The notes under the pieces were generated by a model. That model did not search any database, was not told the DNA's origin, and saw nothing but the letters and a program-made list of their open reading frames with translations. The translations under genes were made by a program, and so were the position numbers. A DNA stretch of 16,207 nucleotides from a virus (taxonomy: Duplodnaviria; Heunggongvirae; Uroviricota; Caudoviricetes). This document shows, one piece after another, positions 12,258-12,543 of the stretch. Location: IMG/VR virus record IMGVR_UViG_643348545_000010; one strand, written 5' to 3'. Each line of letters opens with the position of its first letter. The first letter of the stretch is position 1.

Positions 12258-12543
12258 GTGAAAGGCTCCTACAGTAATTTTAAGGAGTCTCGCTACTACG
12301 CTGTCAAACATGGTGGCGAGACGTAACAGGGTTGACAGACTGGCACTGTAGAGACCAGCGAGCGCAAAGGCTCCCCCGTTACGCCCCGCCATAATGCGGG
12401 TATGGGTAGGTTTACGGACACAAAAAAACCGCATATCGGAATGTAAGCGGCTGTCCGCTACAGTATTCAGGCTGTCAAACCCGGTCGCCATGTGGGCGAC
12501 GGGGGAAGCATACAGCCCCGTGATAATTTTTTGCAAGCGGTTT

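Follow-up and report, generated by a model that had tools for sequence, protein, structure and literature searches.

A likely C4-type antisense-RNA immunity cassette between two icd-like genes of a capsid-forming PICI-type satellite of Escherichia coli

The mechanisms by which C4/CI antisense RNAs act were worked out in P1/P7 and in P4. In both P1 and P4, a stable RNA of about 77–79 nt (C4 or CI, respectively) is processed from a leader transcript in an RNase P-dependent manner. In the annotated P1 sequence, the promoters P2c4/P1c4 are followed by a1, b1, the 77-nt C4 RNA, a2, b2 and icd; a summary of the P1 c4 mechanism is available (PMC8198154). The C4 RNA family has been present in Rfam since its description by Weinberg et al., 2010 (PMC2864571).

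In P4, the CI RNA (8507–8420) is located inside the 214-codon eta ORF (8812–8168), and the last 65 codons of eta constitute the Icd-like kil. A constitutive promoter inside eta gives rise to a terminated and processed immunity transcript, while translation of full eta, which prevents termination, requires transcription from an upstream promoter and is coupled to the gene before it (PMC10111431). The same study reported matches of the Rfam C4 and isrK models in several Gram-negative PICIs and HE-PICIs and interpreted them by the P4 model. A further system with a related layout is the IsrK-orf45-anrP locus of Gifsy-1 (isrK model RF01394), where a two-hairpin leader with a terminator precedes an ORF conserved in nucleotides, not in amino acids (PMC4825925).

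Here, we describe an interval between two icd-like genes (positions 12258–12543) in a 16,207-nt stretch of DNA, which is referred to as the window. We estimate the probability that this interval represents a full immunity cassette with a C4-type antisense RNA, homologous to P1/P7 c4 and P4 CI and located in the early region of an E. coli capsid-forming PICI-type (cf-PICI) satellite, at about 0.85. As matches to C4 and isrK in Gram-negative PICIs have already been published (PMC10111431), the finding amounts to the correct recognition of a known element.

The satellite and its C4 RNA

By its gene content, the host element is a cf-PICI-type satellite of E. coli. The window starts, on the minus strand, with genes for integrase, AlpA and a 245-aa protein, followed by a YlcI/YnfO-family gene on the plus strand. 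The minus strand continues with icd-B, the C4 RNA, icd-A, three small ORFs, DUF4222, a D5_N/DUF5906 primase and SSB, and then with the late genes coding for HK97 capsid protein, prohead protease, portal, HNH, TerS and TerL (Pfam, NCBIfam). The cf-PICI gene set is present, and there are no tail or lysis genes within the window, which ends at the integrase on one side and just past TerL on the other. Described cf-PICIs such as EcCIEDL933 share int, alpA, primase, HK97 capsid, protease, portal, connectors, HNH, TerS and TerL (PMC10085698). E. coli chromosomes contain sequences matching about 87% of the window (identity about 95%), and the annotation of related E. coli islands shows the same cf-PICI layout. 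The P4-like hijacking genes sid, psu and delta are absent from the late region of the window.

The coordinates of the elements described below are collected in Table 1. The two Icd-like paralogs reported in the preliminary description of this DNA both match NF033153 and are separated by 286 nt. A whole-window Rfam scan at curated thresholds has found exactly two matches, both of them inside this interval. The C4 antisense RNA model (RF01695) matches 12396–12309 (−) over its full length (model positions 1–87 of 87) with a score of 69.1 bits against the cut-off of 45 (E = 5.9e-12). For comparison, this model gives 68.8 bits on P1 and 74.9 bits on P4. The a1/b1 target motif (RF03163) matches 12513–12464 (−) with 46.8 bits against the cut-off of 46.7 (E = 2.8e-09). 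The RF03163 score lies just 0.1 bit over its cut-off. No further c4 was found upstream of icd-B in the window with the Rfam models, either at the gathering threshold or at E ≤ 5.

Table 1. Positions of the cassette elements and neighbouring genes in the window
Feature	Position	Strand	Details
icd-like B	12544..12741	-	65 aa; NCBIfam NF033153 phage_ICD_like, 64.7 bits, E 5.8e-18
Putative constitutive c4 promoter	12507..12536	-	-35 TTGCAA 12536-12531, 18-nt spacer, -10 TATGCT 12512-12507
Leader with a1/b1 target motif	12464..12513	-	order: hairpin 1, a1 in hairpin 2 loop, b1; RF03163
a1 UUGACAG	12478-12472	-	in loop of leader hairpin 2; complementary to a'
b1 ACUGUAG	12464-12458	-	complementary to b'
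Small hairpin and U7 hairpin, candidate t1-like leader terminator or switch	12422..12459	-	sub-threshold isrK match, folds, covariation
C4 antisense RNA	12309..12396	-	RF01695, DNA homology, fold, compensatory helix changes
Predicted mature C4 RNA	12390-12312	-	79 nt; ends from alignment with the annotated 77-nt P1 RNA
b' CUACAGU	12351-12345	-	loop of C4 RNA hairpin 2
a' CUGUCAAC	12338-12331	-	single-stranded joint of C4 RNA
Downstream target region a2/b2	12266..12307	-	pairing, covariation, positions as P1 annotated a2/b2
a2 UUGACAG	12307-12301	-	between C4 RNA and icd-A
b2 ACUGUAG	12275-12269	-	overlaps icd-A ribosome-binding site
AGGAG ribosome-binding site of icd-A	12270-12266	-	8 nt before icd-A ATG
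icd-like A	12087..12257	-	56 aa; NCBIfam NF033153, 53.7 bits, E 1.6e-14
eta-like nested ORF	12087..12551	-	154 aa from ATG 12551, or 168 aa from GTG 12593; ends as icd-A
Downstream operon	9436..12094	-	three small ORFs phrog_3672, phrog_1478, phrog_5796; DUF4222; D5_N/DUF5906 primase-helicase, 582 aa

At the DNA level, the region 12488–12299 (about 190 bp) is 76–82% identical to the c4 region of P1, P7, D6, SJ46 and RCS47, as found by blastn against phage records. The minimum free energy of the 79-nt RNA is −44.6 kcal/mol (z = −5.8), and none of 200 shuffled sequences folded as well. The predicted structure has the layout of the C4 family: a long basal stem surrounds two hairpins, the second of which (hairpin 2) carries b' in its loop, while a' falls into the unpaired joint on the 3' side.

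The preliminary description had suggested that the leader between the paralogs encodes a small RNA analogous to c4/CI, and named a scan with the Rfam C4 model and folding of the minus-strand transcript as checks. Both came out in favour of the suggestion. The scan is positive above the curated cut-offs for the RNA as well as for its a1/b1 targets, the fold of the minus-strand RNA is as given above, and the homology to P1 c4 and the covarying RNA-target pairs considered in the next section add to this support. Overall, the cassette belongs to an already known RNA family, and its identification is real and well supported.

Target pairs and their covariation in relatives

The inverted repeat in the interval, taken in the preliminary description for a single pair of 21-bp arms, is real, but a repeat search has resolved it into two separate blocks, 12329–12342/12468–12481 (86%) and 12345–12359/12450–12464 (80%). 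The exact core of each block is 7 nt long: UUGACAG in block a and ACUGUAG in block b. The b' loop and the a' joint of the C4 RNA are exactly complementary to b1/b2 and a1/a2, respectively. Repeated targets for the RNA are therefore present, as had been expected from P1 and P4, and they include a second pair, a2/b2, that was initially missed. The b2 block runs into the AGGAG of icd-A (12270–12266), reading ACUGUAGGAG; this ribosome-binding site is found where it was originally placed. The calculated energies of the cognate duplexes are −15.7 kcal/mol for b2 and −9.4 kcal/mol for a2, compared to −9.0 and −4.6 kcal/mol with the targets of the related E. coli island L002, so the cognate duplexes are 4–8 kcal/mol stronger than the heterologous ones. 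A candidate alternative hairpin exposing a2 in its loop (12322–12313 with 12296–12287) shows 77% pairing and hardly any covariation, in a part of the alignment that contains gaps.

L002 is 95% identical to the window across the region. The differences are clustered in a1, b1, a', b', a2 and b2, and they are compensatory. In block a, GACAG of the window is replaced by AGCAG and CUGUC of a' by CUGCU. In block b, CUGUAG is replaced by AAUUGG and CUACAG of b' by CCAAUU. The L002 allele can accordingly be written as b' CCCAAUU and a' CUGCUAAC.

Further relatives were collected by a DNA-pattern scan of IMG/VR contigs, which has provided 120 loci, 81 of them unique. The unique loci include 20 variants of the b' loop and two variants of a' in 28 combinations. 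In all unique loci with enough flanking sequence, two exact complements of the b' 7-mer are found, one about 70 nt upstream of the RNA and the other 48–54 nt downstream of a'. Complements of a' are found at −84 and +20 in the unique loci with enough flank, the exceptions being L097 and L104 (a1 matches of 5 and 6 nt).

Covariation statistics were calculated on an alignment of 25 sequences, with slid pairings and 500 shuffles as controls. The upstream pairs (a1:a' and b1:b') are 98.3% paired with a covariation score of 0.68, and the downstream ones (a':a2 and b':b2) are 100% paired with a score of 0.73. Slid controls were 22–53% paired with scores of 0.03–0.11, and none of the 500 shuffles reached the observed values. 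The same 25 sequences support the fold of the RNA itself. Its intramolecular helices are 97.4% paired overall, both sides being changed in 11 pairs; helices 5–7 are paired in 100% of cases, and five of their pairs change on both sides. Judged from these sequences, such matched covariation is characteristic of a functional antisense RNA whose recognition is immunity-specific. Allele-specific matching of a and b of this kind reportedly underlies the heteroimmunity of P1 and P7.

The b' alleles fall into two sets without overlap, 13 on the satellite backbone and seven on the P1 backbone. The satellite-type backbone carries at least 13 b' alleles and two a' alleles. Some of the relatives possess two or three cassettes, while the window has one. 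The general form of these arrays is icd-[promoter-a1/b1-U-run-C4-a2/b2-icd]n with n from 1 to 3, and cassettes within one array belong to different C4 lineages or have different a/b alleles. Among 5426 complete E. coli genomes, 121 contain the leader at a coverage of at least 80%, and in two of them it is 100% identical. Strains with the identical leader are E. coli Res13-Lact-PEB17-18 (NZ_CP062855) and S1-CAM-02-A (NZ_CP145707).

The two icd-like genes also share an identical stretch of 19 nt near their 3' ends (CCCCTGACGAATACGGGCG), which was regarded at first as another potential partner of the RNA. The stretch does exist at 12102–12120, but its second copy is located at 12559–12577, shifted by 4 relative to the coordinate initially given. 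As a target of C4 it was rejected: its duplex with the RNA (−15.2 kcal/mol) is no better than those of shuffled sequences (mean −17.9, sd 2.7), and the idea of complementarity between the 19-mers and C4 was abandoned. Both Icd proteins end in a conserved ARIRQG encoded by the 19-mer, which also supplies GGGG before the coupled start of the following ORF (ATGCGTAA after icd-B, GTGCTTAA after icd-A).

Leader, nested ORF and downstream operon

The stop codon of icd-B is located 7 nt before the −35 element of the putative c4 promoter. This site lines up, column by column, with P1c4 (former P51b), a promoter annotated in P1 that has TTGACC and TATAGT separated by 17 nt. It matches the consensus at 8 of 12 positions and for this reason is absent from the results of a promoter scan with a 9-of-12 threshold, which listed no promoter. 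We infer that TTGCAA/TATGCT constitutes the constitutive c4 promoter.

The GC hairpin AGCGG-ACAG-CCGCU (12459–12446) and the U7 run (12428–12422) noted in the preliminary description are both present on the minus strand. The small hairpin GCGG-ACAG-CCGC (−11.0 kcal/mol) shares its first G, G 12458, with b1. An alternative hairpin, AGCCGC..GCGGUU, directly precedes U7 and has a stem of 5–6 bp and a 14-nt loop (−7.5 kcal/mol). In addition, an outer helix GCGGACA/UGUCCGU spans the U-run and is 100% paired with AU↔GC changes. The extra closing pair of the small hairpin, 58:71, covaries with the b1 allele (AU 11, UA 5, GC 4, CG 1, GU 1); a deeper extension of this hairpin into b1 was rejected, as pair 57:72, unlike 58:71, lacks such support. 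The region between b1 and the C4 RNA is conserved with P1.

The isrK model (RF01394) aligns to 12500–12422 below its threshold, with 34.1 bits against the cut-off of 50 (E = 2e-5). The same model scores 60.8 bits on the seqA leader of P4 with terminator t1 and 52–65 bits on the leaders of several relatives. A terminator scan did not list the U7 element, its sole listing being a terminator-like hairpin inside icd-B, and from its predicted fold the U7 hairpin would be a poor intrinsic terminator. The three competing structures may form a weak, C4-sensitive terminator or switch comparable to t1 of P4. Termination at t1 is said to require CI and seqA and to serve autoregulation.

The interval was initially thought to contain no convincing ORF. 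This does not hold, since an ORF in the frame of icd-A spans it from GTG 12593 (168 aa) or ATG 12551 (154 aa). This eta-like ORF crosses the leader, the C4 RNA and a2/b2, and its ATG 12551 overlaps the stop codon of icd-B (ATGCGTAA) upstream of the putative c4 promoter. In all 27 unique satellite-type loci, this frame stays free of stop codons over at least 330 nt before the icd ATG; the median open lengths of the other two frames are 22 and 35 nt. As the satellite-type loci are close relatives, 27/27 overstates the number of independent events. Of 73 loci with the P1-type backbone, one has this frame open and 72 have it closed.

The distance between the two ATG codons is 294 nt in all 17 unique loci with an upstream icd, despite +1/−1 indels. 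In L002 and L074, −1 in the loop of the U7 hairpin is accompanied by +1 in the b' loop; L020 and L114 combine +1 at b1 with −1 in the loop of the U7 hairpin. Since L002 reads about 30 codons in another frame between its two compensating indels, it is the open frame that is kept and not the protein sequence. An open frame without a conserved protein sequence fits a role for translation itself. The independent support for the eta-like ORF comes, in our analysis, from P4. When compared to Pfam and NCBIfam, the ORF product matches only with its C-terminal Icd part; phrog_29966 (188 aa) aligns across positions 14–168. In RefSeq, a 154-aa Icd-like protein (WP_097292280.1) is annotated over the interval in a genome with a 100% identical leader, while elsewhere the eta-like ORF is called a frameshifted pseudogene; no RNA feature is annotated in either case.

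The stop codon of icd-A overlaps the GTG start of the next ORF (GTGCTTAA), which matches phrog_3672 over positions 1–61 of 61 if started at GTG 12094. From icd-A to the primase, the ends of all genes overlap or abut, therefore a block of icd-A translation should silence the satellite replication module. The first gene under the control of the C4 RNA would be icd-A, and the RNA probably gates the satellite replication operon. No Ant-type match was found among the operon ORFs downstream of icd-A (Pfam, PHROG); the output known from P1 is thus missing, and what the RNA controls has to be deduced from gene order. Silencing from icd-A to the primase would correspond to the outcome known from P4 and not to the antirepressor outcome of P1.

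An Icd-like ORF ending about 150 nt upstream of c4 was found in 21 of 29 satellite-type loci and in none of 85 P1-type loci.

Comparison with known systems, mode of action and significance

The locus shares with immI of P1/P7 the order promoter, a1, b1, C4, a2, b2, icd, including the position of b2 at the icd ribosome-binding site. The three-helix fold with b' in a loop and a' single-stranded is also common to them, as is the translational coupling of icd to the next gene. Unlike P1 immI, there are no ant1/ant2 genes and no C1 operator here, and the place upstream of the promoter is occupied by icd-B; a second Icd-like gene directly upstream has no counterpart in the P1-type loci, and neither, with one exception, does the long icd-frame ORF across the RNA. 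The controlled genes here are those of the satellite primase operon.

In the latter respect the locus resembles P4, where a leader with target hairpins and a U-run also precedes the RNA, a D5-type primase operon follows it, and the host is a satellite as well. As in P4 (PMC10111431), the RNA lies inside a long ORF with an Icd-like end, whose start precedes the constitutive promoter (a putative one here) and is coupled to the gene before it. The two differ in that the RNA backbone here is of the P1 and not of the P4 lineage, that the candidate leader terminator is far weaker than t1 (34 bits with the isrK model here, 61 in P4), and that the long ORF is coupled to an icd paralog here and to vis/alpA in P4. 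Instead of sid, psu and delta, the satellite has its own HK97 capsid, portal and terminase genes.

Based on these likenesses, we propose the following mode of action. The constitutive promoter just after icd-B would produce the leader transcript, from which the C4 RNA (about 79 nt) would be cut out. C4 would pair with a2/b2 and hide the ribosome-binding site of icd-A; translation of icd-A and of the coupled genes as far as the primase would then be blocked and their transcription incomplete, with polarity or termination in the primase operon, and the integrated satellite would not replicate. Pairing of C4 with a1/b1 would favour the U7 hairpin and limit the synthesis of C4 itself, i.e., act as autoregulation. 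On induction, a repressor-controlled promoter upstream of icd-B would give a transcript that includes the start of the eta-like ORF, coupled to icd-B. Ribosomes translating this ORF would cross the leader, C4 and a2/b2 and override the RNA block, as eta translation does in P4. That the C4-type cassette is functional appears very likely to us; the details of override and autoregulation have somewhat better than even odds.

The nested ORF raises the question whether the interval is simply protein-coding, i.e., represents the N-terminal part of a 154-aa "long Icd-like protein", the RNA-like signals being incidental. The existing RefSeq CDS (WP_097292280.1) does cover the interval, the frame is open in all satellite-type relatives, and the phrog_29966 alignment extends over 14–168. 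A conserved protein across the interval had indeed been named in the preliminary description as an argument against the RNA; the conserved ORF was found, but it does not refute the RNA, as both co-exist in the way eta/kil and CI do in P4. A purely coding role would leave the intra- and intermolecular base-pair covariation unexplained. It also agrees poorly with the shifted frame of about 30 middle codons in L002, with the restriction of Pfam/NCBIfam matches to the C-terminal Icd part, and with the homology of this DNA to P1 c4, whose known product is an RNA and where 72 of 73 loci have the frame closed. We regard it as highly improbable. Even less credit can be given to the notion that the cassette is a decayed remnant of recombination with a P1-like phage which regulates nothing now. 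Such decay might be suspected from the missing ant gene and from the single cassette of the window compared to two or three in some relatives, but all four targets are still perfectly matched to the RNA in every allele combination, the RF01695 match is full length, and the leader persists in 121 of 5426 complete E. coli genomes (coverage of at least 80%), two of them with 100% identity.

An unlikely option, though a better one than these two, is an IsrK-type logic, in which a short a1/b1 leader RNA ending at U7 would be a trans-acting activator, binding the long transcript or titrating C4, similar to Gifsy-1 IsrK activating the translation of orf45-anrP. The alignment of the isrK model to 12500–12422 includes both hairpins and the U-run (E = 2e-5), and the Gifsy-1 ORF downstream of isrK is kept in nucleotides and not in amino acids (PMC4825925), just as in the window compared to L002. 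However, the score of 34.1 bits is well under the cut-off of 50 and the candidate terminator hairpin is a weak one. An antirepressor or antiterminator output is missing here, and a full-length C4 with perfectly covarying targets just downstream, to which the C4 reading assigns the repressing role, would be superfluous to an IsrK model, in which the short RNA activates.

As for what is added to the published picture, in the searchable literature, outside which most subscription-journal papers lie, we found no description of an Icd paralog regularly located upstream in this backbone, of relatives with two or three heterospecific cassettes in tandem, or of the a/b allele repertoire in cf-PICIs with its non-overlapping b' sets in satellite and P1-type loci. 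The Icd paralog, the tandem cassettes and the separate b' allele sets are incremental additions, and the knowledge of how C4/CI RNAs work is unchanged by these results. The annotation is settled for a stretch to which RefSeq gives no label other than Icd-like protein CDS or frameshifted pseudogene, and the many matched a/b alleles constitute a ready set of orthogonal RNA-target pairs.

The results suggest that the replication genes of cf-PICIs are silenced by an antisense RNA of the P1/P4 type and not only by AlpA or protein repressors. Tentatively, we speculate that the cf-PICI C4 cassette is a stackable, fast-diversifying RNA lock, overridden by a frame-locked eta-like ORF which is coupled to the upstream Icd paralog and driven by an island-specific repressor-controlled promoter. 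If this is true, co-resident satellites and P1-like phage-plasmids would have mutually blind immunities, and cf-PICI induction would be under two-key control by a protein repressor and an RNA, a form of control so far undescribed for cf-PICIs.

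Cassette boundaries and tandem arrays

The 3' ends of the paralogs icd-A and icd-B, which flank the C4 antisense RNA, have a 41-nt repeat in common (76% identity, 19-nt exact core). The same start/stop overlap lies inside both copies. For the eta-like ORF (named after P4 eta/kil) it is ATGCGTAA, after the upstream icd-B; for the phrog_3672 ORF it is GTGCTTAA, after icd-A. This points to a joint duplication of cassette boundary and translational coupling.

In related satellites the cassette occurs in tandem arrays of the form icd-[leader-C4-icd]n, with n = 2 in L038, L024 and L026 and n = 3 in L064. 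In the three n = 2 arrays the upstream cassette comes from a different, P4-like C4 lineage; in L038 and L024 its 7-nt recognition block a is UUAGCCU. The a/b specificities differ between cassettes of one array.

Alleles of the complementary elements within C4 were compared between its two backbones among IMG/VR loci L005-L124, a sample of only 120 contigs all having one common 21-nt pattern. The b' loop has 13 alleles on the satellite-type backbone and 7 on the P1-type, with no overlap. The two a' alleles, CUGUCAAC and CUGCUAAC, are common to both.

Coordinates of repeats, annotated frames, arrays and boxes
Feature	Location	Remark
41-nt repeat, icd-A 3' end	window 12085-12125	
41-nt repeat, icd-B 3' end	window 12542-12582	
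Annotated ORF through C4	L125 2510-2974	NZ_CP062855
Annotated ORF through C4	L002 12739-13203	NZ_CP027219
Tandem array	L038 2766-3658	n = 2
Tandem array	L024 2958-3621	n = 2
Tandem array	L026 10951-10284	n = 2
Tandem array	L064 845-1876	n = 3
10-bp box 1	window 12844-12853	exact match, GTGAATACCA/TGGTATTCAC
10-bp box 2	window 12865-12874	exact match, GTGAATACCA/TGGTATTCAC
10-bp box 3	window 12889-12898	exact match, GTGAATACCA/TGGTATTCAC

Annotation of the frame through C4

In RefSeq/PGAP the ORF running through C4 is listed as WP_097292280.1, an 'Icd-like protein' of 154 aa, or else as a pseudogene marked 'frameshifted' (L125 and the E. coli island L002). Neither of these two genomes has an ncRNA annotation for C4.

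Promoter-like site and hairpins at icd-B

Upstream of icd-B, a promoter-like site (TTGAAA, 17 nt, TAATGT), divergent from a YlcI/YnfO-family gene (12951-13247, +), is flanked by the three exact boxes (12844-12898), with about 0.9 chance matches expected across the whole window. The -35 and -10 columns are kept in the related loci L002, L020 and L119; the boxes differ there. The boxes resemble island-specific operators at which a protein repressor would act.

Directly 5' of the icd-B ribosome-binding site there is a strong hairpin, GAAGCCCCGCAAGUG / CACUCGCAGGGCUUC (window 12806-12770, -; -19.9 kcal/mol, z -4.8), with compensatory differences in its inner stem in L002 and L020 and no U-run after it. 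Another hairpin, terminator-like and located inside the icd-B coding sequence (window 12706-12677, -), consists of CACACAAA-CGGCC-UUUGUGUG followed by GCGUUUUCUG. L020 and L119 retain this hairpin, and icd-A lacks a counterpart. It may be a site where termination responds to translation, like timm of P4.
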